NCBI GenBank assembly: GCA_963770895.1 | Contig: CAVYRF010000001.1 | Location: 2,048,001 to 2,112,000 of the forward strand | Direction of reading: 5' to 3' | Length of the DNA: 64,000 nucleotides | Source: an uncultured Acidobacteriota bacterium | Lineage (GTDB): Bacteria > Acidobacteriota > Thermoanaerobaculia > Multivoradales > UBA5704 | In this document: positions 1,617 to 64,000 of the stretch, piece after piece | Position numbering within the stretch: position 1 is the stretch's first letter | Layout of the letters: the number at the start of each line of letters is the position of its first letter | Program-made: the position numbers and the translations under genes | Notes under the pieces: model-generated | The model's input: only the letters and a program-made list of their open reading frames with translations | Told to the model about the DNA's origin: nothing | Databases searched by the model: none

Positions 1617-1623
1617 GGCGGCT

Positions 1624-2205: not shown

Positions 2206-2256
2206 GGTCCGGGAGGGGTGGGGGGGCAGATTCTTGGCGCCGGCGGGATCGATCCA

Positions 2257-37033: not shown

Positions 37034-37674
37034 CGCCCGCCGCGATCTCCCGCCTCCACTTCCCGGTCACCACGCTCGGCCCGGGGCGCCGCATCGGGGT
37101 CTGGTTCCAGGGGTGCTCGCTCCGCTGCCCCGGCTGCATCTCACCCGATACCTGGGAGCCCGGACGCGGGGAGACCACGGTCGAGGAGGTGCTCGCGGCG
37201 CTCGCCCCGTGGCGGGACGCGGCCGATGGGCTGACCGTCTCGGGCGGCGAGCCGTTCGAGCAGGGCAAGGCGCTCGCCGCGCTCTTGACCGGCTGGCGCG
37301 CCGGAGCGCCGAAGAGCTCGCTGGTCTTCACCGGCTTCGAGCGCGCCGCCGTCGAGCCCTGGCTTGCCGCCCACCCGGGGCTGATCGACGCGCTCGTCAC
37401 CGGTCCTTTCCGGCAGGAAGCGCCGCAGACCCTGGCGCTACGCGGCAGCGACAATCAGGAGCTGCACGTCCTGTCGCCGCTCGGCGTCGCGTTCCGAGCC
37501 CTCGACCGGCCGGCGACCGGCGACGACCGCCGCCTCGACGCCATGTTCGACGCCGACGGCACGGTCTGGTTCGCCGGCATCCCGGCGCGCGACGACTTCC
37601 GGCGCCTCCGCCGCGCCCTCGAAGCGGCGGGCCACGCCGTCACCCTCTCACCCAGGGCACGAGGAGCCGCATGA
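37030..37674 (+). CDS. NrdG/PflA-like radical SAM 4Fe-4S protein
   Basis: 'LGPGRRIGVWFQGCSLRCPGC' (CxxxCxxC), 'GLTVSGGEPFEQ', 'LRGSDNQ'. ATGA overlaps on both sides. Confidence 0.88.
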   Translation: MTPAAISRLHFPVTTLGPGRRIGVWFQGCSLRCPGCISPDTWEPGRGETTVEEVLAALAPWRDAADGLTVSGGEPFEQGKALAALLTGWRAGAPKSSLVFTGFERAAVEPWLAAHPGLIDALVTGPFRQEAPQTLALRGSDNQELHVLSPLGVAFRALDRPATGDDRRLDAMFDADGTVWFAGIPARDDFRRLRRALEAAGHAVTLSPRARGAA

Positions 37675-45241: not shown

Positions 45242-45326
45242 CGGTCGCGATGAACTATTTGCGGGCAAGCGGGTACAGACTTGCCAAACGGCTCCCTTCG
45301 CTCGGTCGAGCCCCGTGAGGTGGCGT

Positions 45327-49726: not shown

Positions 49727-51145
49727 CTAGCCGGCGCTGGCGGCTGCCAGCGCTTCGGCTTCCGATGCGCTGGCTGCCTGCTCTTCGAGGTTGATCAGCG
49801 CCCCCTCGGCGTTGACGTCGGCGCGCGGCTGCGCATCCTTGGATGCGACGGCGCCGGCGGCAGGGCCCGGCGGCAGGCCGCGCTGCCCCTTGTTCCTGGC
49901 CAGGTTGTCCATGCCGGCGGCGAGCTGCCGGCGAAACTCGTTGTGCATCGCTTGCAGGGCTTCGACCTTGACCGCGGTCGTGGTGTTGACGGCGCAGTCG
50001 CCGGCCTTGCTCTGGAAGACTTTCACCGCCACCTTGTTGCCGGCGTCGACGCGCTCGTCGACACGCTGGATCATGTCGCCCGCGCTGAGCGAGCAGCTGA
50101 CTCCGGAGTCTGTCACCACATTGAGCGTCGACGCCACCACGAAGTCCTTCTGCTCCGGGTCGAGCGCCGCCGGCAACGCGGAGTCCGCGCCCTGGTCCGC
50201 GCCGGAGCCGGCCTTGCGGGTCAGCTTGCGTACGTTCTCGGCGACCGCCTGCCGCCCTTCCGGCGTGAACGCCGACGGCGATGCCGCTGGCGCTGCATCC
50301 TGCGACGGAGCGGTCGGCGCCGGGGCGCTCGCCTGGCGCAGGTCGTAGTCGGCCCGCATGGTGTTCGCCACGACATAGTCGGCCAGCCAGTAGGAGGCGT
50401 CCGGGTAGACGGCCGCGGGGGCGAAGTAAGCGCCCGCGCCCACCCCCCACGGTGCCGGCCCGAAGTTCCATGAGTACACGATCGGCGCCGGCCAGGGGGC
50501 GACCGCCCAGGCGTAGAAAGCGGGTTGATAGTAGACCGGTGTGACGTAGGCGTCGACGGTCAGTGCGCCGTATTTCGTGACGTGATAGACGCTCACCTCG
50601 CTATGTGCACCGATCACCGTGGTGCGCTGAAAGTACCCCGGCCGCAGCGGCCGATCGACGTAGCCGCGATTGGCGCCGAAGCTCACCACCCGGCCACCGT
50701 TTGGCAGGTTCGCCACGACCACCCGTCCACCGCGCGCATTGCGCGTCAGGGTAAGACCGCGACGGGTGTCGCGCACCATGGCAGGGCGACCGTTGCCGCC
50801 GAACCGCGCCTCGAAACCGTTCCGGGTGACCCTGGTCACCTGGCCATTGGCGTTGATCGTGCGGGTGGTGCCGTTGGCGCTTCTGACCGTGCGTGCCACA
50901 CCGGGGCCGGTACGTCCCCCGGAACCGGCACCGTTCGCCGGCCGCTGTCCGCCGTGGCTGTCGCCGGTCGCCGGCGCCGGCTTCGCCGTCGACGGCTTGG
51001 CGGTCGAAGTTGATGAGGAGCTTGATGAGGATGATGACGAAGATGAGGATCCCGGCTTGCCCTGCGCCAGAGAAGGCAGGAGGAAGCCGCAGACGAGGAG
51101 CATCCATCCCCATTTCGTACTCGCCGACACCGCTGGTTTGGTCAT
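49727..51145 (-). CDS. Secreted hypothetical protein with Ser/Gly/Arg-rich N-terminus and Tyr/Trp/Pro-rich middle
   Basis: Signal peptide 'WGWMLLVCGFLLPSLAQG', poly-Ser, 'YYQPAFYAWA..PW..P..Y.W', 'YWLADY', 'CSLSAGD'. RBS AAGGAG before ATG 51145. Confidence 0.75.
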   Translation of the reverse strand: MTKPAVSASTKWGWMLLVCGFLLPSLAQGKPGSSSSSSSSSSSSSTSTAKPSTAKPAPATGDSHGGQRPANGAGSGGRTGPGVARTVRSANGTTRTINANGQVTRVTRNGFEARFGGNGRPAMVRDTRRGLTLTRNARGGRVVVANLPNGGRVVSFGANRGYVDRPLRPGYFQRTTVIGAHSEVSVYHVTKYGALTVDAYVTPVYYQPAFYAWAVAPWPAPIVYSWNFGPAPWGVGAGAYFAPAAVYPDASYWLADYVVANTMRADYDLRQASAPAPTAPSQDAAPAASPSAFTPEGRQAVAENVRKLTRKAGSGADQGADSALPAALDPEQKDFVVASTLNVVTDSGVSCSLSAGDMIQRVDERVDAGNKVAVKVFQSKAGDCAVNTTTAVKVEALQAMHNEFRRQLAAGMDNLARNKGQRGLPPGPAAGAVASKDAQPRADVNAEGALINLEEQAASASEAEALAAASAG

Positions 51146-51229
51146 GATCATTCTCCTTTCCCATTGCCGCATCGCTGCATCGAAACTGTGCTTGCACGAG
51201 ACTTCACAATTGCAGCTCACAATTGCTCT

Positions 51230-53164
51230 TCAGCCGCCGCAGGTGAGCCGCGACGCGCCGGCAACCTCCACCTTCTGTCTCTGCTCCACCTGTCCCCCTG
51301 GTCCGCGCGCCGTCAGGGTATAGGTGATGCTCGACAGGATCTGCGGCGCCAAGCGATAGCCGGAGTCAGGCTCCACCTCGCCGTATCCCGGCTCGATCGA
51401 TACCGACGTCGCCCCCTTGACGGTCCAGCTCAGCTTCGTCATGCCGCACTGCTGCACGAACCGCGGGTACACATCGAAAGCCTGGATCTCCGGCGGTGGT
51501 GGCGGCGGAATCGCCGCCACCGGCCGAACGGGCGGTTCCACCCTGGACCGCGACGGCAAGCTTTCGCTCTCGGCCTGCGACGGAGCGCGCACGGACCGCG
51601 CGCTCACCGGATCGCTTTTCGCCGCGTGCGGCTCTGGCGCCAGGGGCGCACGCCGTGGCTCGCTCCGCTCGGGCGTCGCGGCCGTCGCGCCCGCCTTCGC
51701 CGGCTCTGGTGCAGCGCGCGACGGCGCTATCGCCGCGCCGATGCTCGCTGGCGCCGGCGCCGCCGGCAGCGCAGCCGGCTGCTGCAGGGGACCGCCGCGC
51801 GTCCGCTGCATGCCGAACCAGACGCCGAACCCGGCCACGGCCACGAGACCTGCGATACCCATCCAGCGCAGCAGCGCGCCCAGACCGCGACGCGCCGGGC
51901 GCAGTCCCAGCTCGGCGAGAAAAGCATCGAGCTGCGTTTCTACAACGCTGCGCGGCAGGCCGAACTCTTCGCCCAGCCGCACGTAGTGCCGCACCATCTC
52001 GATGGTGTAGGTGCCGTTCTTGCCGTCCTTTTCGGCCGCCATCCGCACCGACTTCAGCCAGGTCGTGCGGCGGGCTCGGCCATCCTTGAGACCAGCCTGG
52101 GCCAGGACCGCCGTGACCTCGCTCTCCGCCGCCTGTTCGCTCATGCCGTAGCGGCCGAGCAGCCGCTCCGCCGTGCGGCAGGCGCTGGGCCGCACGACGC
52201 GCAGCTCAGCGCCGCTTCCAGCCTCCGCTCCCGGTGCGGCGTCGCTTGCATAGGTTCCCGCCAGCAGCAGCTCTTTCACCTGCCGCCGCGCCCCCTCCAG
52301 CCGGGTCCCCGACAGCGACTGCAAAGCCACCGTGATCAGCCGGCCGGCCGGCCCGGCATCGCCCGCAGCGGGGCCGGCTTCCGCAGCCAGCCGCGCTTCG
52401 TCCTCCGGTCGCAGCACCCGATCTCCGCCGCGCCACGCGAAGAGATCGGCAAGCCGCGCCTCGATCCGCTCGAGCTGCTGCATGCCATCCGGCCGCGGCG
52501 CCCGCTCACGCCGTGCCGCGGGCAGCCGGGCCAGGAGGTCGCCGGCCCGCCGCGCCAGGTCGGCCTCGGAGCTCCCCTCGCCGCGTTCTAGAAACTGCTC
52601 GATCCAGTCGCGGCACCGCGCCACCGCCTCCTGCGCCGCGGACGGCGCCGTCCATGCGTCGGGGCCTTGCGCCAGCAGCGTGACCATGCGCAGCGCGCTG
52701 AGCAGGTCCCAGTCGCCCGCCGTCCAACCTTCGAAGATCGCCGGCGCCCAGAGCCAGATGCCGTAGTCGACGGCGCCGCGCTCCGGCTCGCCCGAGCCGA
52801 GGCGCGCTCGATTGCCCACCCAATCGAGCAACAACGGCGCACCGCCGACGTGGCACACATTGCGCGGATGCAGGGCGCCATGGGCCTTACCGCCGAGAGC
52901 GGCGATGATTTTCGGCAACAGATCAAAGGAGAACTCGATGCGGTCTCCGGCCGCCGCATCGCGAAAGATGTCCAGGTAGCTGATGCCAAGCTCCGTGCTA
53001 TCGAAGAATCGGCGAGTGACGGTCAGCACGTCCCGCTCCTGGGTGTAGCCGGCCACGACACCGGAGCGCCGCGCCGCGCGTAGCTCGGCCTCCAAGGTCA
53101 CGTCGAGCTTGATGCCGCGGAAGCTGCGCCGGCGCAGGCCGGACTGGGCGTCACTCGGGGCCAC
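51230..53164 (-). CDS. Membrane protein: N-terminal kinase-like (likely inactive) domain, TM helix, Pro-rich linker, C-terminal Ig-like domain
   Basis: 'HGALHPRNV...LLLDW...WAP...WDLLS' (degenerate HRDLKPxN/DFG/APE/D); TM 'MGIAGLVAVAGFGVWFG'; 'PPEIQAF...TKLSWTVKGATSVSIEPG...TYTLTARGPGG'. Confidence 0.7.
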   Translation of the reverse strand: MAPSDAQSGLRRRSFRGIKLDVTLEAELRAARRSGVVAGYTQERDVLTVTRRFFDSTELGISYLDIFRDAAAGDRIEFSFDLLPKIIAALGGKAHGALHPRNVCHVGGAPLLLDWVGNRARLGSGEPERGAVDYGIWLWAPAIFEGWTAGDWDLLSALRMVTLLAQGPDAWTAPSAAQEAVARCRDWIEQFLERGEGSSEADLARRAGDLLARLPAARRERAPRPDGMQQLERIEARLADLFAWRGGDRVLRPEDEARLAAEAGPAAGDAGPAGRLITVALQSLSGTRLEGARRQVKELLLAGTYASDAAPGAEAGSGAELRVVRPSACRTAERLLGRYGMSEQAAESEVTAVLAQAGLKDGRARRTTWLKSVRMAAEKDGKNGTYTIEMVRHYVRLGEEFGLPRSVVETQLDAFLAELGLRPARRGLGALLRWMGIAGLVAVAGFGVWFGMQRTRGGPLQQPAALPAAPAPASIGAAIAPSRAAPEPAKAGATAATPERSEPRRAPLAPEPHAAKSDPVSARSVRAPSQAESESLPSRSRVEPPVRPVAAIPPPPPPEIQAFDVYPRFVQQCGMTKLSWTVKGATSVSIEPGYGEVEPDSGYRLAPQILSSITYTLTARGPGGQVEQRQKVEVAGASRLTCGG

Positions 53165-53170
53165 GACGCA

Positions 53171-56100
53171 TCAGGCCAGCGGCGGCGGCTCGTCCGCCAC
53201 CAGGTCGGCGATCTCCGGCACTTCGAGAGCCCCCTTCCACTCCGCACCGAATGCCTTTTGCCACACCTTGTGATGGCGCTGCGGAGCCTGGGCGATGCGC
53301 GCCGCGATCTCTTGCGCCGTCAGCTTGCCCAGGCTCTGATCGTCGCACGCGTAGTGAAAGAGCGGCACGGCAGGCGGTTCGGCCGGAGCGGCGGCAGAAG
53401 GAGCGCTGGCAGCGGCGGCTGCCGCAGCTGGCGCCGCGATAGGCGGCGGGGGAGCGCCCAGGAGAGCTGCGATCTCAGGCACCTCGGATGCCTCGCGCCA
53501 GTTGTCCATGTCTTGGGAGAAGACCCGATGGCTGCCCAGCGGGTGGCGTGCCGCCCGCTCCGCCACCTCGGCTGCCTTGAGCCCGGACTCCTGCGTCCCG
53601 TCGGCGCCGGCATAGAACCAGGTTTTCTCGCCCGGCGGCGGCGGCGGGGCGCCCACCGTCGCCTCGGCAAGGCGGTCGAAGAAGTCCCAATCGATCCCCA
53701 GGTGCGGGAAGCTGAGCACCGTCGTCCCCAGGACATCGCGCGTCGCCGGCAGGGTACCCTTGGCAACGAACGCCTCTGTCGCCTTGCGCGCCAGGCTGAG
53801 CAGGCTCCAGTCCTCGATGCGATCGGCATCGGGCAACGCCGCCGTGCTCGGTACCGGTTGGCCGATGTCGCGGTAGATCGGCTTGCTCCATTCCGCCAAC
53901 GACTGCATCAGGCGCTCGACGTCTTGCTCGATGTCCGCCACAGCGCCCCCGCCCAGCGCCTGCTGCTCCCGCCACTCCCGGCGCAGCTCGTCGCTGACCA
54001 GGTTCTGCATCGAGCCCAGCGCGGCGATCGGGCTCTGCCCTTCGCCGGGCGGGCGGCGCACCGGGAAGACGCAGTAGAAATAGTAGTCGGCGAGGGCCGC
54101 CAGATAGGTGAAGCTCTGCCGGCTGAGCGTCCGCAAGCGCTGCCGTTCGCTTTCCGCATCGTTTTGCAGCCGCGAGCGCAGCGGCGCATCGACCATCAAG
54201 CGTTCGACGGCGCGCCCCTCGGAGCCCAGGTCCGTCCACTGCACGTTGACCCGCGTCGTGCGATGCCGCCACTGGAAGACCAGGCGTTGATCGTCGCCGG
54301 CGCGCAGGCGGAGGCTGCGTACGAGGCCGAGGATCTGCACCTCGATGAACAGCTTCCAGACCACGCGGAAGGTCGCCAGCTGCCCCAGGTTGAGCGGCAT
54401 CAGCGTCTGGAACTGATGGTAGTCCTGGTGGATATGCAGCGGCGTGATGGTCCGCGGATCGCGCAGCAGCGCATCGTAGTGGCGATTCAAGCTGGAGATC
54501 TCGCTCAGGTAGTAGGCGGGGAACGCCGTCAGCTCCGAATAGAAGATGATCTCCGAAGGATCGAGCGCTCGCACCTCGCGCGGCGCGAACTGATCGGGCG
54601 CGATCTTCTTGAGGCTGGCCATCATATTGTTGGCAACCGGCTCGAATCCGTCGGCGATAAGGCCCACGAAGACGTCGCCCTTGGGCGCCGGCGGGAAGAC
54701 GACGGCCTCGACGTTGTTTCTTTGCGCCCACGGCAGCCCTTTGCGGAACAGCTGCTCGAAGAGCTCTTGCTTTTGGCCTTCGTTGTAGCCGTCCTTGAGC
54801 AGGCGGAAGATCGAATACTGCTCGATGAAGCCCTGTTTCGTCTCACCGTCTTTGTCGCTGAAGGCGGCGGTGCTGCCGTTTTCGCCGCGCAGCGCATAGA
54901 ACGCCTGTGCCGCAAGGTTGTCGCGGAAGCTCTCATACGCGCCGAAGAGTTTGCTGCCGATCTGCTCCAGGGTGGTCAGACCCATTTCGATCAGCCCGCG
55001 GTCGAGCAGCCGCTGCAGCCGCTCGCGGCGCTCTTCGGGCTGGCGCCCGAGGTACGGTTCGAGCAGGTCGCCCAGGTCGGCCTGCGCCGCCACTTCGAGC
55101 ACGATGTACGAACGCTGCGGCGTCTCGTAGAAACGCGCCAGGTTGCCGTACTCGGTCTCCAGGGCGACCATGCGCTCGGAGATGCGCTCCAGGGCGCTCA
55201 GCTGCTCCTGCAGCGACCTGGCGATCGCCGCCAGCGCCTCGGGTGCCTGGGCGGCGATATATTCGTTCGCCCGCGCGCGCCAGGTCTCGGCCAGCGCTTC
55301 TCCGGCCAGCTGCACCGCTGCACGGTGGTTGCCGGCGCTGGCACCGAGCCCCTGCGATGCCTGGTGCGCCGTCTGCAGACGCTTCTTCCACAACGCCTCG
55401 GCGGTCTCGACCCGTTTTTGCAGCGTCGGTCGCTGCTGCCGGAACCAGTCGGCATAGCGCGCCTGCGTGGCATCGCGACCGAGCAGCTCGATGCACTCGC
55501 GCAGCAGCGCCATGACCCCCGACAGGCCGACCGCCGGCAGCCGGCGATAGTTCTCGATCACCTCCGGCAGGCGCTGGTGAACCTCGCGCGCCAGCGCCTT
55601 GCGGTTCTCGAAGATCTGCTTCGGCCAATCGCCTTCGCGACCGGCGGCATAGGGGTCGCCCCACAGGCGGACCAGCTTGCCCCACAGCTCGTTGCCCATC
55701 TCGACGGTGTTCTTCTCGCTGTACATGCTCTCCGCGAGACCGCCCAGCTCGTCCTGAAAGCGTTGGATATGCTCGTAGACCGAGCTCACACCGTTGGCCG
55801 CCTGCACCTGCCGGGCCAGCCGATCGCGCACCTGGGCGAAGTTCTGCCGTCCCTGATCGGTCAGCCGTTCGCCTTGCAAGATTCCACAATCGAACAGGAA
55901 GCGGTCACGGTGCAGGTTCAGGATGTCCGCCAGCCGCGCGATCCGCCCCGGATCCATGAGCGTCACCATTTCGGCCGCCAGCAGGTACTTGGCGCGGTTG
56001 ATCAGGCGCCACGACGGGAACACCAGCTTGCTCAGCCCGGCGCTCGAAAAGGCGCTGCGCCACTGCTCGGCGTGCGTCTCGTGGGTGCTGCCGTCGGGGC

Positions 56101-57166
56101 GCAGCAGCCGGTAGCTGTTGGTGACGGCGCTGCGCAGGTACTGTTCACGATTCACCCGCACACCCTGGATCCAGCCGGCCATCTCGCCGGCGCCAAAGTC
56201 GAGAAACAGGATCTCGCCGATCGCCAGATAGCAGTCGCTCAGCGAGTCGAGCTGCTGGCCGGTCGCATTGGTGCCCGAGAACAGCACGTAGCGGTTATAG
56301 AGGCCGCGAAACTCCGTCGGCAGCGTGGTCGGCTCCCACCGCACCGTGAAGGGGTGGCTCAGATAGTGGTTGATCTCCTTGAGCGCGGCAAAACCGTTGG
56401 CCGCGACCTTGGGGTACGCCCCAGCCTGCTCGACGGTGCTGAAGCCGCCGGGCAGCACCAGATAGGCTTCGAGGCTCGGCCGCTCGTAATGGCCGAGCTG
56501 CTGCTGCAGCAGACCCGCCAGGTCCAGGAAGATCCCCGAGCCGGTGCCGCCGGCGATGCCGGCGACCACCACCACCCGCACGCTGCCGCTGGTGTCGACC
56601 CGGTTGCTGCTGACGCGGTTCGAGGACACCTTGCGGTAGGCGCGCGCGATCCCCTCTTCGATCTCGCCGTGGTTGCCGAACAGCGCCAGCCGGGCGAGCT
56701 GGCGGATCTGACCGGCGCCGTTCTCGATATTGAACTCCTGGCTGGGCAGCGCGGCCTCGTCCCACCAGTCGCGAATCTCCGGATGATGAATGATATTGGG
56801 TCCGACCATCCCCTTGAAGTCGACCTTCAAGTTGATCCGTTCTTCGCGTGCGAAGCCGATCAGCGCCTCGAGCGGGTTCTGCTTCTGCTCCTCGGGGGAG
56901 GGCTGCTGCGAGTGGATATCCGTGTCGATCGAGAGGAAGGCGATGCCATCGAGGTGATCGAGCGCACCGTAGCGCTCGATGATCAGCCGGCGCAGGTGCA
57001 TGAGGGCTTTCGCCCCGGTGCCACCAAGGCCGATGAAGATGGTGCGCGAATAGATGCCGCCCTTGCGGCTCCGCGCCTCGGCCTCCAGGCGGCTGACATA
57101 GGACGCGTCGTCGGCCTCGCTCACCGCACCGATCACGCTCGGCGCCAGAGTGGTACTTTCAGCCAT
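53171..57166 (-). CDS. Tubulin-like (Tubulin_2-type) GTPase domain protein with long helical region and two C-terminal GYF_2-like domains
   Basis: 'TIFIGLGGTG', 'FLSIDTD', 'GAGQIRQLARLA', signature 'AGIAGGTGSG', 'ANGFAALKE'; C-terminal 'WFY...G..(x)..W..A.EVPEIA.L' twice. RBS AAGGAG. Confidence 0.85.
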   Translation of the reverse strand: MAESTTLAPSVIGAVSEADDASYVSRLEAEARSRKGGIYSRTIFIGLGGTGAKALMHLRRLIIERYGALDHLDGIAFLSIDTDIHSQQPSPEEQKQNPLEALIGFAREERINLKVDFKGMVGPNIIHHPEIRDWWDEAALPSQEFNIENGAGQIRQLARLALFGNHGEIEEGIARAYRKVSSNRVSSNRVDTSGSVRVVVVAGIAGGTGSGIFLDLAGLLQQQLGHYERPSLEAYLVLPGGFSTVEQAGAYPKVAANGFAALKEINHYLSHPFTVRWEPTTLPTEFRGLYNRYVLFSGTNATGQQLDSLSDCYLAIGEILFLDFGAGEMAGWIQGVRVNREQYLRSAVTNSYRLLRPDGSTHETHAEQWRSAFSSAGLSKLVFPSWRLINRAKYLLAAEMVTLMDPGRIARLADILNLHRDRFLFDCGILQGERLTDQGRQNFAQVRDRLARQVQAANGVSSVYEHIQRFQDELGGLAESMYSEKNTVEMGNELWGKLVRLWGDPYAAGREGDWPKQIFENRKALAREVHQRLPEVIENYRRLPAVGLSGVMALLRECIELLGRDATQARYADWFRQQRPTLQKRVETAEALWKKRLQTAHQASQGLGASAGNHRAAVQLAGEALAETWRARANEYIAAQAPEALAAIARSLQEQLSALERISERMVALETEYGNLARFYETPQRSYIVLEVAAQADLGDLLEPYLGRQPEERRERLQRLLDRGLIEMGLTTLEQIGSKLFGAYESFRDNLAAQAFYALRGENGSTAAFSDKDGETKQGFIEQYSIFRLLKDGYNEGQKQELFEQLFRKGLPWAQRNNVEAVVFPPAPKGDVFVGLIADGFEPVANNMMASLKKIAPDQFAPREVRALDPSEIIFYSELTAFPAYYLSEISSLNRHYDALLRDPRTITPLHIHQDYHQFQTLMPLNLGQLATFRVVWKLFIEVQILGLVRSLRLRAGDDQRLVFQWRHRTTRVNVQWTDLGSEGRAVERLMVDAPLRSRLQNDAESERQRLRTLSRQSFTYLAALADYYFYCVFPVRRPPGEGQSPIAALGSMQNLVSDELRREWREQQALGGGAVADIEQDVERLMQSLAEWSKPIYRDIGQPVPSTAALPDADRIEDWSLLSLARKATEAFVAKGTLPATRDVLGTTVLSFPHLGIDWDFFDRLAEATVGAPPPPPGEKTWFYAGADGTQESGLKAAEVAERAARHPLGSHRVFSQDMDNWREASEVPEIAALLGAPPPPIAAPAAAAAAASAPSAAAPAEPPAVPLFHYACDDQSLGKLTAQEIAARIAQAPQRHHKVWQKAFGAEWKGALEVPEIADLVADEPPPLA

Positions 57167-57193
57167 GGTGCTCTCCTTGCGAAAATATGGGCG

Positions 57194-57532
57194 TCAATCC
57201 CTGCTTGCGACCACCCAGGTATAGAGACCGTCCACCAACACCACCACCGCCATCGCCGCCAGCCAGATCAGGAAACGCGGGTGCAGGCAGCCGTTGGTCA
57301 GATAGCCGGTGGCCAGCATTGCCGCCAAGGCCAGCGCCAGGCTGCCGAAGATGCCGACCTGCCGTCCCAGCACGGCGCTCTTGTCACGGTTGATGTACGA
57401 GCGCTCCACCACCCGCACCAGGGTGAAGAACAGGAGCACGAACACCGCCAGTGTGATCGCCACGATCAGGATCCAGTCCTGGGTCGAAGGCGGGCGGCAG
57501 AGAGCCAGACCTCCAAAGGTCGGCAGCTGCAT
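57194..57532 (-). CDS. Small 3-TM membrane protein (112 aa)
   Basis: 3' part of ORF 57194..58510, starting 'MQLPTFGG' after GGGAGG, with three hydrophobic segments. Confidence 0.75.
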   Translation of the reverse strand: MQLPTFGGLALCRPPSTQDWILIVAITLAVFVLLFFTLVRVVERSYINRDKSAVLGRQVGIFGSLALALAAMLATGYLTNGCLHPRFLIWLAAMAVVVLVDGLYTWVVASRD

Positions 57533-57600
57533 GGGAACCTCCCTTTCTTTCCGTTCACTCGCTTCGTTGACCGTGCCAATCCGCGGCCCGGTGAGCGCTG

Positions 57601-59631
57601 CTACCAATTGTCCAGCCGGCCGCCCAGACGCGGGTCGTGAAGCGGCGCCCAGCCGCGCCGGACCTCGATCCGGCGGTCCTCGGTCTCGCCCGGCAGAGCC
57701 GCCATCCAAGCCCCGCCCTCGCGCCGCAAGCGCGTGCCGCCGCGCCCCACCAGCCGGTACCCGGCACCCCAGCCGCGGCGCAGCCGGGCGCGCACCGCAC
57801 CGGCGACTTCGACATTCTGGCCGCTGCATCGCGACAGGCTGAGGCGCGCTGTCTCCAGACCGTCGACACTGACGGTGAACTGCTTTTTCTGGAATCGCAG
57901 GACGATCAGCGTCACCAACGCGGCCAGCGTGCCGCCGCCCAGCACCGACAGCAGCGCCAGCAGCTGGCCGTCGTTTGCCACCTCGGCGGCGATGGGGAAG
58001 CTGGCCTCGGCGGAGCTCGCCTGGCGATGGAGGAAGATCTCCGGCAGCTGCGCCGCACCGTAGACGCTTTCGAAGCCGTGGATGTCGATCGCCAGCCGGG
58101 TCGCCACGTCGTGGATCGCCGCGCGGATCGTGCCCTGGAGAAGAATGCGGTTGGTGAACGCCACGGTGAAGAGCGTCGGACGTATCGTCGTATCGACATC
58201 GACCGCGGGCAGCTGGAACTCGACGTCGAGGTCGCTCTCCGCAAGAGGCGCCAGCGGTCCGACGCGGATCGGCTCGTCGCCGGGGTGCCGGCTGCCGCCG
58301 TGGATTGCCCAGCCGCTGACCGTCATGGTGTCCGGGCAGATCGGTGATGCCCAGGGCACCGTCGGACCCGCGGGCGCCGCGGCCGGCAGCAGGAGCTCGT
58401 TGCTCAGCTGCAGCGTCGCCGCCTCCACCGTCTGATGGCGCAGCACATTGCGGATGCGCAGCCGGGCGCGGCAGAGCACCGGCTTGCCGAACTCGGCACC
58501 GCTGTCGCATTCGACCGCCGGTTCGCCTTCATGGCCGGCCATGGTGATGGCCAGCACCTCGGCGTCGATCGGTTTGAGACGCAGCGGCACCCCTGCCAGG
58601 TCGGCGCGGCCGCCGGCGGCGATGCGGCCGCTGTTGCGCGCCGCCAGGTCGTGCAGGCCGCTGTTCCAGAGCCAGCCGTCCGCCGACGGTCCGCCGCCCT
58701 CGGGGGTGGTGCCGCCGAGGAGGTGGAACTCGCCGTGCGGCGGGCGTTCGAAGGGCGAGACGTAGAGGCCGTAGACGAACAGCGAGGTGCCGCACATCCA
58801 CGAGCAGGTGGCGGCCTGAAAGATCGGATAGGCCGAGATCATCTGCACCCGCGGCTCGCTGTCGAGCAGCTTGTAGAAGTCGGCGGTCAGGCGCGCGTCG
58901 CGATCGTCGAGCGGCGAGCCGCCGCTGCCCTTGTCGACGATGTTGTCGGTGACCAGCCAGAGGATCTCGTCGCCTTGCAACCCTTCGACCACCCGCCGCA
59001 GGGCGCTCGGCGTATCGGTTTCGTTGGGCGCGTCGGGATCGACCTTGTACGGGTTTTCCGGCAGCTGCCGCAGGCGCGCCGCGAGCAAGTCGACGCTGCC
59101 GCTGCCGAAGGTATGATCGAATGGCAGCCGTGCGCCGGCGGCGAACGGCTCCACGCCGGTCTCGCCGAGCCGCCAGAGCCGGCGGTTGAACAGCAGCAGC
59201 TCGAGATCGACCTGTTGCGTCGGCGGAATGGCCGCCGCCAGCCAGCGTGACAAGAACTGCTGGAATTCCGGCGACGCGACGTAGTAGGGCTGCCCGTTGC
59301 GTTGCGTGCGTCCGCCGATCGTACCGCCGGCGCAGACCTCGCACTGCTCGACTTTCGGCTTGCCGTAGCCGGGATACATGCTGCCCGAGAAATCGAGCAG
59401 CAGGACCATCTTGCGGTGCGCGCCGGGGCGCGCCGGAGCGGCTTTCCTGAGCACTCCACCGGCGCTCGGATCGACCACCGCGGCCTCGCCGGCGGCGCCG
59501 CGATCGTGCTTTGCCTCCGCCGGCCCGGCGGCACAGGTGCGCGTCATCGGATGACCGCAGCCGGCGAGGGCCAGGGCGCCGGCGACAGCCAGCCAGGCGC
59601 GCGCCGCGGTCGCTGCCGCCGGCGCGCTCAC
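57601..59631 (-). CDS. Lipoprotein with vWA-like (MIDAS) domain and C-terminal TM anchor
   Basis: Lipobox 'LALAGC', MIDAS-like 'LLLDFSGSM', 'ETDT..AL', 'LWLVTDN', TM 'LLALLSVLGGGTLAALVTLIVL'. Confidence 0.75.
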   Translation of the reverse strand: MSAPAAATAARAWLAVAGALALAGCGHPMTRTCAAGPAEAKHDRGAAGEAAVVDPSAGGVLRKAAPARPGAHRKMVLLLDFSGSMYPGYGKPKVEQCEVCAGGTIGGRTQRNGQPYYVASPEFQQFLSRWLAAAIPPTQQVDLELLLFNRRLWRLGETGVEPFAAGARLPFDHTFGSGSVDLLAARLRQLPENPYKVDPDAPNETDTPSALRRVVEGLQGDEILWLVTDNIVDKGSGGSPLDDRDARLTADFYKLLDSEPRVQMISAYPIFQAATCSWMCGTSLFVYGLYVSPFERPPHGEFHLLGGTTPEGGGPSADGWLWNSGLHDLAARNSGRIAAGGRADLAGVPLRLKPIDAEVLAITMAGHEGEPAVECDSGAEFGKPVLCRARLRIRNVLRHQTVEAATLQLSNELLLPAAAPAGPTVPWASPICPDTMTVSGWAIHGGSRHPGDEPIRVGPLAPLAESDLDVEFQLPAVDVDTTIRPTLFTVAFTNRILLQGTIRAAIHDVATRLAIDIHGFESVYGAAQLPEIFLHRQASSAEASFPIAAEVANDGQLLALLSVLGGGTLAALVTLIVLRFQKKQFTVSVDGLETARLSLSRCSGQNVEVAGAVRARLRRGWGAGYRLVGRGGTRLRREGGAWMAALPGETEDRRIEVRRGWAPLHDPRLGGRLDNW

Positions 59632-61247
59632 GGCGCCTCCGCCAGGTCGATGCGATAGCTCTTCACGCCGGGTCCGTAGCCGATGAAGATCTGCCGCCCG
59701 AAGACGGCCATCCCCTGGCGGCCCTGGTAGAGGCCCGGGACGGCGGCCTTCACCTGAAACGATTCGTCGTTCCAGCCGATGCCCTGCGAGTCGAGGCAGA
59801 GGCTGCCCTCGAGGCGCGAGATCACGCCGGCCGAGGTGATGATCGGCGCCTCGTGCGAGCCGGCCACTCCGCCCTCGCGCCCCATGGCGGGTGCGCGGCC
59901 GGCGGTCGCCAGATTGGCGCGGTCGAGCGACAGCACCAGACGGTCGGTCGCCAGCGCCGCCAGGCGGGCGGCCGCATTAGCGCGATGCGCCGGCCCGCGA
60001 CCGACGGCGAGCCCCACCACCTCGCCGACATTGGACAAGCCGCAGCTGTTCCACGACCAACCGCGGCCGGGAGCCGTGCGTAAGGGATCGAAGTGCACCT
60101 GATGGACATCGGCGTTGCCGCCGGCGCGGCGGTCCGCCAGCCACAGCTCGGAGCGCGTCTGCCCGCCCGCAACCACCGCCAAGGTCGGCCCCAGATCCAA
60201 CGTCAGGTGAAGAACGGGGTCAGGCAGCTGCACCGCGACCGGCAGCCGCGCGGCATCGCGGATCGCCGCGGCTTCGAGCATCGCCACGCCGCCGTGACGG
60301 TTCACCCAGACCAGCACGTCCAGGCGGCGGTCGAAGACCGGCGAGCGGGCAATGTCGGGAACCGCGCAGCTCGCCAGCTCTACCCCCAGCGGATCGAAGA
60401 AGCGCAAGCTGGCATCCGCCAGCACCCCCGGCTCGTCCGCCTCGCGCGCCTCGAGCAGGCAGAATCCCGGCCCCTCGGCCTGCTCGATGCCCAGCGGCGG
60501 CCCGAGGAACCGCGTGCCCGTGGTCGGCGCCACGCTCCGCGCGCTCCGTGCGGTGCCACCGCGCTGGGGAAAGAGGAACGGTGCAAGGTCGCGGAACTGC
60601 GCCTCGTGCGGTGCCACGACGACCATATGGGTGCCGCGGCACGCCGGCGGCTCGACCACGCTCCAATGGGGGTCCGGCGGTTCGAAGCGGCTCGCCTGCC
60701 ACTCCAAAGGGTGCGGCATCAGCGGCACGCCCTTGGCGATATCGAGCAGGGTGATCGAGCCGCGCGCGGTGACGGCGGCCAGCGCACCGCGCACCACCGA
60801 CACGGAGGTCACCTCGTCGTCTTCGTCGTTTCCCGGGCCCACCACCGCTCGTGCCTCCCAGACTTCCGTCAGGCGCAGCGTCCAGCGCGTACCCGGCATA
60901 CCGAAAACGGCCCCGCGCGAATCGCTCTGGCAGAAGCTGCGGCCCGGCTCGCCGCCGGCCTCGCACCAGTCGAGCAGCGAGTAGCCGTTCAGCTCCTGCC
61001 CGGTCTGCGCGCAAAAGGCGCTGTCCGGCCGCCGGTTGAGCTCCATCCTGGCGACGCCCGGCGCCGGCTGGAACGACACGGCCTCATAGGGACGGTTGCA
61101 GGTGGGGCACCAGGCGAGCACCGCCTCCATGGTCCAAGTCGCATCGACCGGCGCCGCGCAGTCCGGGTAGGGGCAGCGGCTGGGGGTGGAGAAGCGCTGG
61201 TTGGCGCGGTCCCATTCCGGGACAAAACCGGTGGCGATCATCGTCAA
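59628..61247 (-). CDS. Hypothetical protein with N-terminal Zn ribbon and probable beta-propeller
   Basis: 'CPYPDC...WCPTC...FCAQTG'; beta-rich repeats ('PPACRGTHMVV', 'SPVFD...LVWV', 'APIITSAGVI', 'MAVFGRQIFIG'). Overlaps both neighbours. Confidence 0.65.
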   Translation of the reverse strand: MTMIATGFVPEWDRANQRFSTPSRCPYPDCAAPVDATWTMEAVLAWCPTCNRPYEAVSFQPAPGVARMELNRRPDSAFCAQTGQELNGYSLLDWCEAGGEPGRSFCQSDSRGAVFGMPGTRWTLRLTEVWEARAVVGPGNDEDDEVTSVSVVRGALAAVTARGSITLLDIAKGVPLMPHPLEWQASRFEPPDPHWSVVEPPACRGTHMVVVAPHEAQFRDLAPFLFPQRGGTARSARSVAPTTGTRFLGPPLGIEQAEGPGFCLLEAREADEPGVLADASLRFFDPLGVELASCAVPDIARSPVFDRRLDVLVWVNRHGGVAMLEAAAIRDAARLPVAVQLPDPVLHLTLDLGPTLAVVAGGQTRSELWLADRRAGGNADVHQVHFDPLRTAPGRGWSWNSCGLSNVGEVVGLAVGRGPAHRANAAARLAALATDRLVLSLDRANLATAGRAPAMGREGGVAGSHEAPIITSAGVISRLEGSLCLDSQGIGWNDESFQVKAAVPGLYQGRQGMAVFGRQIFIGYGPGVKSYRIDLAEAP

Positions 61248-62185
61248 CGCCCCACGATGACTTCAGCGCGATGCTGGATGGCGCCGCCGCGCACGTCGCG
61301 CAGGCCGGCCGATTTGATCCCCACCACCAGGCCCGAGGCTCCCGCCACGTCGGCCCCGGCCACCGCCTGGTGCACCCGCGGATCGAAAGGCGTCTGATAG
61401 GGCTCGACGGGATCGATCACAAACCAGCCGGTGCGTTGGCAGGCGCCGCTCAACGACTCATAGAGCAGGGCGCGCAACCGCGCCGCGAGGGCGCGGCCGG
61501 CCGCGCTGCCGCGCTGCCCCTCGCTCGCCGCCTCGGAATAGAAGCGCGACAGGGCGTCGAGCGCGGTCACCAGGTCCTGGTTCAGCCAGTGCCGGCGCAG
61601 CTCGTCCTCGCCCTGGCCGGCGGCGATCGCAAGCCGTTCGATCTTGGCCTTGAGCGGCGCACCGAATTCGCCGCGAAAACCTTCCCGCAGCTCCCGATCC
61701 AGGAACTGGTCGGCCAGCCGAGGCGCCTCCCGGTAGAGGACTTCGAGCAGCTCGGCGACCTGCCGCCAAGGCGGATCGGCGGCCTGGTCGCGCACCGCCG
61801 GGATCGCATCGGGCTTGGCCGGCGGACCGCCTTCTGCTTCGCCGCGGCGACGACGCGGCGGCATGGCGGCAACGGCGGCCGGCGTCGCCGGCTGCGCCGC
61901 GCCGGCGGCCGGCGCCGTGTCGCTGTCGCTCTCCGGTACCGTTGCGGTCTTTGCGGCCGCAGCCTTAGGTTCGGGTTCGGGCGCGGGCGCGGGTGGCGGC
62001 GCCGGCACGGCAGGCGGCGCTGCGGCCAGGCTGTCGAGCTTGCCCTCCAGCCGCTGCACGGTCCGCCGTAGGCGCAGCACGATCAACAGGTTGGCCAGCG
62101 CGAGCCCGACCGCGAGCCCGAGCATCCCAGGGGCACTGATCTCCTGCAGCGACGAAGCCACGGCTGCGAGCATTGCGCTCCTCAT
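61244..62185 (-). CDS. Membrane-anchored GrpE-like protein
   Basis: Start MRSAML at 62185 (ATGA overlap with the Hsp70 stop); TM 'MLGLAVGLALANLLIVL'; Pro/Ala linker; C-terminal GrpE-like beta domain 'TPFDPRVHQAV...GLVVGIKSAG...IQHRAEVIVG'. Confidence 0.72.
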   Translation of the reverse strand: MRSAMLAAVASSLQEISAPGMLGLAVGLALANLLIVLRLRRTVQRLEGKLDSLAAAPPAVPAPPPAPAPEPEPKAAAAKTATVPESDSDTAPAAGAAQPATPAAVAAMPPRRRRGEAEGGPPAKPDAIPAVRDQAADPPWRQVAELLEVLYREAPRLADQFLDRELREGFRGEFGAPLKAKIERLAIAAGQGEDELRRHWLNQDLVTALDALSRFYSEAASEGQRGSAAGRALAARLRALLYESLSGACQRTGWFVIDPVEPYQTPFDPRVHQAVAGADVAGASGLVVGIKSAGLRDVRGGAIQHRAEVIVGR

Positions 62186-64000
62186 GAAGATAGCGTTCCC
62201 TGGCACCACTGCCCGTCGATCAAGACCGAGAAGTCGCTGGGGCCCGCGATCTTCAGCGTGACGGTAGCCGCCTCCCTGAGGGCGGGAAAGATGAAGCTGA
62301 CATACGCATCCTGGGCGCCGTCGCGATAGAGGTCCAGAGAATCGCTGCCGGCCTCGAGCGGCAGCGTGACCTCCAACGGCAGTTCGTCGCCCCGCCGCAG
62401 TCCCGGCAGAACACTGAAGGCACGAGGCCCGCGCTTGAGCTTGAGCTCGAACCGCAACGACTTGAGGTAGGAGTTGTCGATGCTGATCCAGGATCCTGCC
62501 CGGTTGCTCTCGGCCCAGATCGCAGCGCCGATGGCAACGCACGTCTTGGGATCCAGAGCGCCCTGATCGGGTTCGATGCACAGGAGCTTGTCCGCGCCTT
62601 TGCCACGCAGGCCGCGGAGATGGCTGACGATCTCCTTGCGGATCACCGGCAGGCGCGTCGTCTGACCCGTGAACAGCAGCGTCGTCAAGTCGCGGTTTTG
62701 CCATCCCGCGTCGGCGATCACGCTGGTGATTAATCCGAGATGCCCGCGGATCGCCGTGCTGACCTGCTTGTCGAAGGCGCCGCGCTGGAGGGCGATCTGG
62801 TAGTTGGCGGTCACCTTGGCCGCTTCGCCTGCATCGTCGCGCGGCCAGCCGCTGGCGCCCACGCCGCGGCGCACCTCGGCGCCGTCGCCCTGCGGTGGCT
62901 TGCCCTTCGCGCCGCCGGCGCGCGAGAACTCGCGCTTCACCGACTCGGCCTCGGCCAGCAGCGCCGTCGCCACCTGGTAGGCGGCCCAGGCGCCGCGCCT
63001 GCCGGCCTCGCCGTAGCGCTCCTGGAACCTCTGCTCCAGGTCGACGTAGGAGCGCGCGCGCAGCGCATCGCGCACCAGATCGCCGCGCACCGGCGCCCCC
63101 TGGTCGCGGGCCTGCTTTTCGATCTGGTCCAGCATCTCGCGGGCGAGGAGCTCATCCAGGTCGTCGCCACCGAAAATCGTGCCGGTCTTCGCCGCCAGCT
63201 TCACCGTGACCTTTGGCGCCTGACCCGCGGCGAGCGCAGCCAGATTCTCCACCTCGACCGCGGCGATGTCCGTGGTCCCGCCGCCGATGTCGAGGCACAG
63301 CACGAACTCCTTGTCGGCAGGCTTTGCCTTGGCCACGGTGCCCTTGAGTTGGGCCTCGACATAGGCGAGCACAGCGGCGGTCGCTTCGTCGACGCAGCTC
63401 GCGGCGAAGAATTTGGCGACGTCCGGAAAGTCTTCGTTGATGCCGGCGGCCTGTGCCGCATCCATGAGCGCGCGCTGCGCCGCAGGTGAGATCTCGACGG
63501 GATGGCTGAAGGCCGCCCGATCGACCAGCGGGCGGCCGTCGCGAGAGAGTCTGAGCCCGCGCATGCTGGCCTCGCTCAATCGCGGCAGGTTCGCCTCCGC
63601 GCGGCGCTTGAGCTCGGCGATGAAAAGGTTGAGGAGCTCCTGCGGGCTTTTGATCACCCGGTCTTTGCGCCAGTTGTCGGAGCTGCGATAGAAGACGTAG
63701 CGCGTCTGGCTGGCGCGGGCCACCACGGTTTTGATGCTGCGTACCAGGTTCTCGGGGCGGATCGACGCCGAATTGACCGCCAGGTCGCCGAACAAAAACT
63801 CCTCGGCGCCGCCAGGTGCGAGACTGTTGAAGCACATCAACGAACGAATGCGGTCCTGATCGGGATCGCGTTCGAGCATGAGGGGACAGCTGAAGTCCTG
63901 TCCGCCGCGGATGCAGACCACCGAGTTGGTGGTGCCGAAGTCGATGCCGATGGTCATCGGCTGCGCCTTGCCGAAGCGCGCGATGACGGTGAGGTCCAGG
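62182..64000 (-). CDS. Atypical Hsp70-family ATPase, 5' end beyond the window
   Basis: 'GIDFGTTNS', 'DEATAAVLAY', 'DIGGGTTD', 'GGDDLD', 'TGQTTRLP', 'DPKTCVAIGAA'. The frame stays open upstream of 63957 (LDLTVIARFGKAQP) with no RBS, so the protein has an N-terminal extension; the C-terminal domain is only about 100 aa. Confidence 0.85.
   Translation of the reverse strand, partial: LDLTVIARFGKAQPMTIGIDFGTTNSVVCIRGGQDFSCPLMLERDPDQDRIRSLMCFNSLAPGGAEEFLFGDLAVNSASIRPENLVRSIKTVVARASQTRYVFYRSSDNWRKDRVIKSPQELLNLFIAELKRRAEANLPRLSEASMRGLRLSRDGRPLVDRAAFSHPVEISPAAQRALMDAAQAAGINEDFPDVAKFFAASCVDEATAAVLAYVEAQLKGTVAKAKPADKEFVLCLDIGGGTTDIAAVEVENLAALAAGQAPKVTVKLAAKTGTIFGGDDLDELLAREMLDQIEKQARDQGAPVRGDLVRDALRARSYVDLEQRFQERYGEAGRRGAWAAYQVATALLAEAESVKREFSRAGGAKGKPPQGDGAEVRRGVGASGWPRDDAGEAAKVTANYQIALQRGAFDKQVSTAIRGHLGLITSVIADAGWQNRDLTTLLFTGQTTRLPVIRKEIVSHLRGLRGKGADKLLCIEPDQGALDPKTCVAIGAAIWAESNRAGSWISIDNSYLKSLRFELKLKRGPRAFSVLPGLRRGDELPLEVTLPLEAGSDSLDLYRDGAQDAYVSFIFPALREAATVTLKIAGPSDFSVLIDGQWCQGTLSS

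Follow-up and report, generated by a model that had tools for sequence, protein, structure and literature searches.

The window analyzed here is a stretch of 64,000 nucleotides (nt) from an uncultured soil Acidobacteriota bacterium (GenBank assembly GCA_963770895.1), corresponding to positions 2048001–2112000 of contig CAVYRF010000001.1 in an 8.16-Mb, three-contig genome (G000) that is 94.95% complete. Its last part carries, on the minus strand, an operon encoding a tubulin-like protein of the FtsZl1 family, a vWA-like membrane protein, an Hsp70 ATPase-domain fusion and a GrpE-like protein with a transmembrane (TM) anchor, and these four genes form a conserved colinear core. The genes are numbered g1 to g8 in order of transcription, and gB and gA lie upstream of g1, beyond the window (Table 1). 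Coordinates marked L002 refer to the upstream extension, on which 182–3223 is g1 and 5630 is equivalent to window position 67630.

An initial annotation of positions 51230–64000 had described seven tightly packed minus-strand genes in an operon that continues past the window, and both points are borne out. GC content in the region is about 70%. GC content at third codon positions (GC3) is 0.84–0.88 for g1–g7, 0.825 for g8 and 0.77 for gA, the nine genes other than gA spanning 0.82–0.88. Stop and start codons overlap at the three places already noted, as ATGA between g1 and g2 (62182–62185), TTGA between g2 and g3 (61244–61247) and GTGA between g3 and g4 (59628–59631). The following genes are separated by 65 nt (g4–g5), 27 nt (g5–g6), 6 nt (g6–g7) and 9 nt (g7–g8, taking g8 as the longest open reading frame, ORF), and a GGGAGG sequence stands 7 nt 5′ of the g5 ATG. 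Upstream, the g1 frame is still open and coding beyond the window edge (GC3 0.865), and it is preceded by gB (517 residues) and gA (211 residues). A sigma-70 scan gave one site that is promoter-like by consensus match alone, upstream of gA on the minus strand (L002 5602–5574) and in a 163-nt divergent intergenic region; a terminator search after g7 and g8 gave no convincing candidate. The operon comprises nine or ten genes, the membership of g8, which the initial annotation did not include, being uncertain. High-GC DNA can give long spurious ORFs, such as a 1460-residue plus-strand shadow ORF at 53258–57640, and the genes might on this account be artifacts or chance neighbors that form no system at all. 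That explanation is scarcely credible: the shadow ORF has a GC3 of 0.68 as against 0.84–0.88 in the minus-strand frames, starts and stops overlap, the products match known families and have colinear orthologs 35–62% identical in two other genomes, and the core set recurs in 19 of 53 FtsZl1 loci, as described below.

Table 1. Genes of the operon, listed in window coordinates or, upstream of the window, in coordinates of the extension L002
Gene	Position	Strand	Length (residues)	Features
gA	L002 4831–5466, upstream outside window	−	211	
gB	L002 3234–4787, upstream outside window	−	517	
g1	62182–65223 (window-equivalent end; L002 182–3223)	−	1013	Zn ribbon, Ig-like region and Hsp70 ATPase domain, fused
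g2	61244–62185	−	313	N-terminal TM anchor, Pro/Ala-rich linker, GrpE-like C-terminal domain
g3	59628–61247	−	539 (longest ORF; 537 in protein collection)	4-Cys Zn ribbon, eight-bladed β-propeller
g4	57601–59631	−	676	Lipoprotein-type signal, periplasmic vWA-like domain, β-sandwich, one TM segment, small cytoplasmic β domain
g5	57194–57535	−	113	Small three-TM protein, directly upstream of g6
g6	53171–57166	−	1331	FtsZl1/Tubulin_2 domain, conserved middle and C-terminal region of ~750 residues, two GYF_2-like repeats, poly-Pro flanks
g7	51230–53164	−	644	Kinase-like cytoplasmic region without catalytic Asp, helical region, one TM segment, Pro-rich linker, C-terminal β-rich domain
g8	49727–51220	−	497 (longest ORF)	Secreted-looking Ser-rich protein, possible last gene

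The g6 protein matches Pfam Tubulin_2 (PF13809) over residues 43–401 and positions 1–355 of the 356-position profile (191.6 bits, cut-off 27, E = 3e-56); the FtsZ-like proteins of the FtsZl1 type are equated with Tubulin_2 in the accessible text of PMC9871819. The GTP-binding signature of tubulin and FtsZ, given in the accessible text of PMC2875224 as GGTG in loop T1 and a GGGTG(S/T)G-type sequence in loop T4, has counterparts in Gly48-Gly49-Thr50-Gly51 (T1) and Ala205-Gly206-Gly207-Thr208-Gly209-Ser-Gly211, both invariant in eight family members. A Kyte–Doolittle scan, the method used for all TM predictions on g1, g2, g5 and g6, found no TM segment in g6; judged from its sequence, g6 belongs to the tubulin superfamily, is cytoplasmic and has kept its GTP-binding loops intact. 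Conserved columns in the alignment of the eight members reach residue 1090, and this, together with the length of the protein, would fit the coiled-coil middle and α-helical C-terminal domain that are traits of FtsZl1. One GYF_2 match covers residues 1183–1231 (26.5 bits, cut-off 25.8), and poly-Pro stretches at residues 1174, 1239 and 1327 flank the two C-terminal repeats. A profile search of the PDB gave no solved relative of g6 by sequence, the closest entry being TubZ at E = 0.38. The adjacent g5 has three hydrophobic segments, and homologs of it stand directly upstream of FtsZl1 in four further loci (L028, L029, L031 and L032).

The window holds the C-terminal 591 codons of g1 plus 14 more, and the “Hsp70” of the initial annotation corresponds to the C-terminal 591 residues. 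As the frame remains open and coding past the window, the full product is a 1013-residue fusion, and an identical 1013-residue protein is present in the public protein collection. A Zn ribbon (Cys8, Cys11, Cys22 and Cys25, at least 90% conserved among 15 homologs) and an N-terminal region of about 400 residues precede the Hsp70 ATPase domain. The Pfam HSP70 match (58–61 bits, cut-off 20.6) is confined to the ATPase domain, the DnaK ATPase domain 1dkg_D is the closest entry in the PDB (E = 4e-11, over residues 424–717), and the GIDFGTT, DxGGGTxD and GGDD motifs are invariant among the 15 homologs. All matches stop near residue 907, and searches of Pfam, NCBIfam and the PDB identified no substrate-binding domain or lid in the last ~105 residues. 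An immunoglobulin (Ig)-like Pfam family was matched in the N-terminal region of a distant g1 homolog (25.8 bits), and no TM segment was found in g1. From its motifs, the ATPase domain looks ATPase-competent, and a normal substrate-binding lid appears to be missing.

The g2 protein has one TM segment (residues 21–39). Its likeness to GrpE comes from remote homology: aligning the g2 family with eight canonical GrpE sequences of relatives (hhalign) gave a probability of 87.6% and E = 3.5e-6, with columns 209–298 opposite GrpE 62–142. Scores against curated families fall short of their cut-offs. There is no Pfam match for g2 itself, the NCBIfam GrpE model reaches only E = 0.038 and 13.7 bits (cut-off 137), and a distant homolog of g2 scores 21 bits against Pfam GrpE (cut-off 25.8). 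A search of the whole genome with PF01025 retrieved the canonical grpE only and not g2, and a PDB profile search with g2 gave nothing usable.

A predicted complex of g1 residues 420–905 with g2 residues 160–313 received a median score of 0.62 in three runs, the best of three controls scoring 0.00; that mark is attained by 58 solved complexes out of 80 and by 2 of 110 mismatched pairs. At least 92% of contacts are shared between runs, the partner has a predicted local distance difference test score (pLDDT) of at least 71, and the predicted interface joins the C-terminal β region of g2 (residues 267–313) to ATPase-domain residues 453–514 of g1. Because the DnaK–GrpE complex has already been solved (1dkg, the top PDB match of g1), this score is read as likeness and not as binding. 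The pair shares with DnaK–GrpE the ATPase-domain motifs, a GrpE-like C-terminal domain by profile–profile match and the predicted interface. It differs in the N-terminal Zn ribbon and Ig-like region of g1 and the ~105 residues after its ATPase domain, in the TM anchor of g2 and its place below the Pfam and NCBIfam GrpE cut-offs, in having no J-protein encoded in the operon, and in the presence of canonical dnaK and grpE as separate genes of the genome. Elsewhere the genome encodes a canonical FtsZ, one canonical GrpE and three further strong HSP70 matches (527–890 bits), one of which starts ~230 nt after grpE; the FtsZ-like, Hsp70 and GrpE-like proteins of the operon are therefore extra copies.

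In g4, Asp80, Ser82, Ser84 and Asp229 are invariant and Thr228 is at least 90% conserved across 18 sequences, forming a metal-ion-dependent adhesion site (MIDAS) motif. Neither g4 in Pfam and PDB sequences nor any member of its alignment in Pfam gave a match. An AlphaFold2 model (pLDDT 78.9) was compared with known structures in a wide VIA-align search, where 12 of the 50 matches listed span residues 64–333, the vWA-type folds among them reaching Z scores of 7.2–8.1. They include NorD VWA (Z 7.5), the ArnB paralog VWA2 (Z 7.4) and 4fx5 (Z 7.2), which carry vWA in their titles, as well as Sec23/24 (Z 7.8–8.1). Most of the matches beyond the titled ones are of vWA type as well (Sec23/24 trunk, collagen VI N2, factor B and PilB). 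Residues 348–553 form an Ig-like sandwich, matched at Z 8.2–8.6, and a Foldseek search with the whole model returned Ig-like and pilin entries only, at TM-scores of 0.1–0.15. As the Z values are middling, the fold assignment is supportive rather than decisive. A signal-like hydrophobic N-terminus is present in 18 of 18 family members, and all three of the closest orthologs with a readable N-terminus have a lipobox-like Cys. The TM helix takes up residues 556–579 (560–578 by hydrophobicity), and residues 582–659 make up a small β domain. The signal-like start, the lipobox and the basic residues after the TM helix place the vWA and Ig domains outside the membrane and the tail inside. g4 and its three close orthologs end in a conserved D-x-W (D-N-W in g4), and the vWA-TM proteins of a distant subclade have poly-Pro cytoplasmic tails. 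The related genome G037 has two tandem copies of the vWA-TM gene (L024 9075–12900), which are 46% and 26% identical to g4.

An AlphaFold2 model of g3, built from 31 sequences (pLDDT 78.9, predicted TM-score 0.80), has Rsa4 and BamB as its best Foldseek matches in the PDB (E about 1e-9). VIA-align gave Z scores of 25–27 to eight-bladed propellers (top match Z 27.1, root-mean-square deviation 3.0, 332 residues aligned), including Z 26.8 to the designed eight-bladed Cake8, with 309 of 320 residues aligned. The ribbon residues Cys23, Cys28, Cys45 and Cys48 are invariant in the 31 sequences. There is no Pfam match, and 29 homologs besides g3 itself are 41–61% identical. The propeller gene of the related genome G024 is matched as two pieces in different frames (L023 7599–9213), suggesting either a frameshift or faulty assembly. 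In sum, of the gene products named in the initial annotation, the tubulin-like protein with GYF-like domains, the Zn-ribbon propeller and the ATPase domain of the atypical Hsp70 are firmly identified, the last as the C-terminal part of a larger fusion, and the three-TM protein has its three hydrophobic segments. The vWA lipoprotein with a TM segment is supported by its MIDAS motif, middling fold matches, signal and lipobox; the TM-anchored GrpE-like protein is supported by its TM segment, remote homology and a complex prediction that passed its controls, and its scores against GrpE models lie under the curated cut-offs.

The initial annotation had proposed co-conservation of the gene set as a check, and this was found for part of the operon. 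Searches with g6 in 61 related genomes, G000 included, gave an FtsZl1 match of any kind in 23. Full-length g6 orthologs occur in three of the 60 relatives (G024, 63% identical; G052, 57%; G037, 54%), and no match was found in the nine genomes of the same genus, which are 84–94% complete. The order gB-g1-g2-g3-g4-g5-g6 is colinear in G024 and G037, each locus having seven of the ten operon proteins at 35–62% identity; gA, g7 and g8 have no match in either. A wider set, with one genome per species, consists of 79 FtsZl1 loci taken from the best 80 of 149 confirmed relatives. Iterated profile searches of these recovered the families of g6 in 70 loci, g4 (vWA-TM) in 24, g1 in 19, g5 in 4, g2 and g3 in 2 each, gB in 1, and gA, g7 and g8 in none of the 79. 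With a profile that includes one distant sequence, the GrpE-like family is found in 19 loci, and iteration from the distant sequence adds one more.

Presence of the core was judged in the 53 loci whose FtsZl1 ORF is preceded by 9 kb of sequence or more, the other 26 being too short. Hsp70 fusion, GrpE-like and vWA-TM genes are encoded together on the FtsZl1 strand in 19 of the 53, and in 18 of these the order is Hsp70 fusion, GrpE-like, vWA-TM, FtsZl1 (H-E-V-T). A partial set is present in two loci, in one of which it runs into the end of the flank, and none of the three genes in 32. The conserved colinear core of the operon is thus the Hsp70 fusion, the GrpE-like protein, the vWA-TM protein and FtsZl1. 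The core loci belong to Acidobacteriota and Myxococcota by record name, the others being unplaced, and the 32 loci without the set come from cyanobacteria, Armatimonadota and one each of Sericytochromatia, an unlabelled metagenome-assembled genome (MAG) and Myxococcales. In a FastTree phylogeny of 68 FtsZl1 sequences, all 20 from loci with the H-E-V-T set (G000 included) fall in one clade of 26 (SH-like support 96), which splits into two deep subclades: the G000 type, in which the protein ends in GYF_2, and a Thermoanaerobaculia type ending in double Zn ribbons. gB, g3 and g5 are retained only in the closest subclade. The accessory families of the distant subclade (515, 402, 381 and 104 residues) are not homologous to g3, gB, g2, g4, gA, g5, g7 or g8 as judged by hhalign, whose probabilities reach at most 4.6%. 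Equal longest-contig sizes suggest that homologs of g1, g3 and g7 may share contigs (21673 for all three; 93319, 128746 and 48687 for g1 and g3).

The gene after FtsZl1 is the variable one. Here it is the kinase-like g7, in G024 a DUF1598 protein, and in G037 a TM protein and a transglutaminase-like protein (positions read at L028 14009–16063 and L032 13757–16116); g7 and the G024 gene in the same position show no similarity. The initial annotation listed g7 as a TM pseudokinase. The TM segment is present (residues ~428–452), and the pseudokinase identity is a reasonable lead rather than a result. The nearest ESM Atlas clusters are protein kinases at a score of 0.86, under the 0.9 mark, and hhalign against nine kinases gave a probability of 4.9% (E = 0.008), with HGALHPRN opposite HRDIKPSN and LLDW opposite DFG in register. 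HGAL replaces HRD in both known sequences of the family. Pfam gave no match, and g7 is not among the 32 Pkinase matches of the genome. With a single homolog (41% identity), and with non-homologous genes in its place in both orthologous loci, g7 is a lineage-specific add-on, and its inclusion in a conserved set does not hold; nor does co-conservation extend to gA and g8.

Two published classes of predicted systems resemble the operon, and statements on both refer to the accessible text of the papers concerned. Makarova and Koonin (2010, Biol Direct 5:33, PMC2875224) defined FtsZl1 and described operons in which it is accompanied by vWA proteins, which have an intact MIDAS and in many cases are secreted or bound to the membrane, as well as by kinases, by OmpA proteins and by a divergent GTPase; the partners are frequent, not obligatory, and membrane remodelling was proposed as the function. 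The present operon is like these in the adjacent vWA protein with MIDAS, signal peptide and TM segment, in its several TM partners, in a kinase-type neighbor (here degenerate, and a lead only) and an OmpA-domain neighbor, and in the canonical FtsZ elsewhere in the genome and the patchy distribution of the family. Unlike here, no Hsp70, DnaK or GrpE is named in the main text of PMC2875224, whose families A1–A2 and B1–B9 are defined only in its supplements and may include an Hsp70-like member. The divergent P-loop GTPase partner was not found at this locus, no Walker A motif being present in the ten operon proteins (0 of 10), and relative to the operons of that text the two GYF_2-like repeats at the end of FtsZl1 are a feature of this locus.

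Kaur et al. (2020, eLife 9:e52696, PMC7159879) described GTPase-centred conflict systems defined by the pairing of a DO-GTPase (a TRAFAC GTPase, often with N-terminal Zn ribbons) and GAP1. Their accessory themes include tubulin with vWA, HSP70 with GrpE (and DnaJ), kinase with Zn ribbon, β-rich domain and vWA, and paired GYF, and tubulin and HSP70 are treated as multimer-forming effectors. Systems of the GAP1-N2 type share with this operon a tubulin fused to a helical C-terminal region alongside a membrane vWA protein with a β-rich domain, HSP70 with GrpE (some HSP70s of that text lack the peptide-binding domain, as g1 may), paired GYF, a kinase with Zn ribbon, β-rich domain or TM segment (here the kinase is a lead), membrane-proximal action (here a prediction), and a conserved core with variable modules. 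The themes are called non-overlapping in that text and occur mostly in Actinobacteria and Firmicutes, whereas here tubulin with vWA, HSP70 with GrpE and a kinase-like gene stand in one Acidobacteriota operon. Searches of the complete 8.16-Mb sequence with PF19993 (DO-GTPase2) and PF20013 (GAP1-N2) came back empty, a control genome being positive; PF19975 (DO-GTPase1) also gave none, but neither did the control genome. None of the ten operon proteins matches DO-GTPase2, GAP1-N2 or a P-loop family of any kind, with E values of up to 0.1 allowed. The locus shares parts with both published classes and would work in a similar way. It is a member of the FtsZl1–vWA class, and, as neither DO-GTPase2 nor GAP1-N2 was found in the genome, it falls outside the DO-GTPase class. 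It follows that the term “undescribed,” used in the initial annotation, is too strong: the accessible texts predict FtsZl1–vWA operons in 2010 (PMC2875224) and the tubulin, HSP70–GrpE, vWA, kinase and GYF themes in 2020 (PMC7159879), and the H-E-V-T arrangement may already be listed in the supplementary tables of both papers. A literature search found no experimental study of the FtsZl1 family or of these predicted systems.

Taken together, we propose that the operon encodes a membrane-spanning machine of the FtsZl1–vWA class with a private Hsp70 and a membrane-tethered GrpE-like exchange factor, acting in stress or conflict, and put the probability of this reading at roughly 45%. In such a machine the periplasmic vWA/Ig module would bind, in a metal-dependent step, a ligand that is either foreign or part of the envelope, and the signal would pass through the membrane to the cytoplasmic domain of g4. 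That domain might nucleate or release a higher-order FtsZl1 assembly at the membrane, where g5 would be the likely anchor. The anchored GrpE-like factor would cycle the Hsp70 locally, and the Hsp70 could set the assembly threshold or dismantle the assembly. The Zn-ribbon propeller, the Zn ribbons and the GYF and poly-Pro elements may serve as adaptors, and the gene after FtsZl1 (here the kinase-like TM protein) as an exchangeable input or output module. The initial annotation had likewise pictured an envelope-spanning sensor coupled to a chaperone pair. The anatomy fits (signal, TM segment and tail in g4, a TM anchor in g2, no TM segment in g1 and g6), and control of a polymer by the pair stands as a proposal. 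The specific idea that a private, tethered Hsp70/GrpE cycle gates assembly or disassembly of a non-canonical polymer of the tubulin superfamily when a periplasmic vWA receptor responds is speculative, and we regard it as somewhat unlikely. If true, chaperone-controlled supramolecular switches would have a prokaryotic counterpart here, one formed without the DO-GTPase/GAP1 core so far taken to define tubulin/HSP70 conflict systems, and FtsZl1, a family defined in 2010, would gain a first testable mechanism.

The most likely role of the operon is in a stress or conflict response, as predicted by Kaur et al. (2020), rather than in cell division. A housekeeping cytoskeleton that remodels membranes or forms vesicles, as in the proposal of Makarova and Koonin, would account for FtsZl1 having vWA, OmpA-type and TM partners, with the Hsp70 pair needed only to assemble the complex. 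TM segments occur in g2, g4, g5 and g7, four of the ten proteins, OmpA partners are named in the accessible text of PMC2875224, and at this locus a PBP_like_2/OmpA gene is the divergent neighbor, homologs of whose PBP part lie downstream of FtsZl1 in 6 of 84 loci; G024 also has a gene with PBP and OmpA domains. This function appears unlikely, because FtsZl1 was not found in nine genomes of the same genus and is patchy across the order, the slot downstream of it is variable, and nothing like ESCRT, dynamin or BAR proteins came up in Pfam and NCBIfam scans of the operon proteins. A conflict or stress role is favored over housekeeping by the patchy spread and by the variability of that slot.

The client of the Hsp70 is a second point of choice. 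One Myxococcales MAG of the G000 subclade (L031 14078–17941) has kept g5 and FtsZl1 with no Hsp70, GrpE-like or vWA gene nearby, and right after FtsZl1 encodes a response-regulator–DnaJ–TPR protein followed by a Ser/Thr kinase with PEGA. A J-domain protein beside FtsZl1 where there is no vWA gene ties parts of the Hsp70 system to FtsZl1 and not to vWA. This bears on the suggestion that the Hsp70/GrpE-like pair is a biogenesis device for exported parts, which holds or delivers the vWA lipoprotein and other secreted components, and does not act on the tubulin-like protein at all. Its membrane-anchored exchange factor, the signal-like N-termini of g4 and possibly g8, and an Hsp70 that seems to have no normal lid, and so may have one dedicated client, would suit such a device. 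Against it stand the Myxococcales relative and the conservation of the Hsp70 fusion and GrpE-like protein together with FtsZl1 in one clade, and we hold it to be distinctly unlikely.

The N-terminal half of g1 raises the question of whether the fusion is a chaperone. A separate gene of the distant subclade, encoding the 402-residue family, is paralogous to the N-terminal region of g1 (hhalign 93.7%); this, with the Zn ribbon, the ~400-residue N-terminal region and the Ig-like match in a distant homolog (25.8 bits), would agree with an actin-fold fusion that co-assembles with FtsZl1, in a structural or sensory capacity, instead of acting as a chaperone. Its N-terminal Ig-like repeats would then be the variable sensor, with a parallel in the FNIII-repeat component of GAP1-N2 systems. 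The treatment of tubulin and HSP70 as multimer-forming effectors in the accessible text of PMC7159879 would also agree. We consider this improbable, since the catalytic and nucleotide-binding motifs of g1 are invariant and a dedicated exchange factor is conserved alongside, and both argue for a chaperone-type ATPase cycle, as in the proposed membrane-spanning machine.

Several observations weigh against that machine. The g1–g2 complex may have passed because it reflects the solved DnaK–GrpE complex, and a J-domain is absent from the operon (no HPD motif in the ten proteins and no DnaJ match in Pfam). The vWA assignment is made from a motif and middling Z scores, without a Pfam or PDB sequence match, and the g4 profile aligns with VWA domains of its own genome at only 26% probability (hhalign). 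The 19 core loci, being kin in one clade, are not independent observations. PADLOC-DB 2.0.0 gave a single weak match, between g1 residues 635–716 and PDC-M61B (E = 1.6e-4, 18.5 bits), and none for the other nine proteins, and no recognizable toxic effector is encoded at the locus.

The four-gene core is compact, colinear and repeatedly conserved, and appears to combine a periplasmic receptor, a cytoplasmic GTPase, a dedicated chaperone and its exchange factor. It indicates that two themes known from reports as separate accessories of systems centred on a GTPase, tubulin and HSP70–GrpE, can stand together as an independent unit in which this GTPase is missing, and the locus offers an experimental entry point to systems predicted computationally.

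g8 has no Pfam or NCBIfam family and no homolog in any locus compared, and gA has no relative in the loci compared and no Pfam match. gB belongs to a small family, with 33 representatives in 1.84 billion proteins, and has no relative in Pfam (searched with all alignment members), the PDB or the ESM Atlas (best score 0.76). By eye only, its N-terminal VVLGCG motif and a C-terminal stretch are actin-fold-like; a relation to g1 as a degenerate Hsp70 paralog is unsupported (hhalign of the two families, 0.5%).

The gene divergent from gA (L002 5630–7189, plus strand; window-equivalent 67630–69189) encodes a Zn-ribbon-like N-terminus, one TM segment, PBP_like_2 and OmpA (48.3 bits), and may belong to the system. 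The PBP homologs downstream of FtsZl1 in 6 of 84 loci are 26–32% identical to its PBP part (E = 2e-9 to 3e-16), five of the six loci being labelled cyanobacterial and one unlabelled; in G024 the PBP and OmpA gene lies two genes after FtsZl1. On the other side, a 777-residue STAND-type NTPase (AAA_16, NPHP3_N, NACHT; 47324–49657, plus strand) converges on the end of the operon. Farther away on the plus strand are a 2385-residue ORF (36750–43907) with one of the 32 Pkinase matches of the genome at 38136–38711, and a 656-residue protein (45099–47069) with cupredoxin-like, Calx-beta and fn3 domains.

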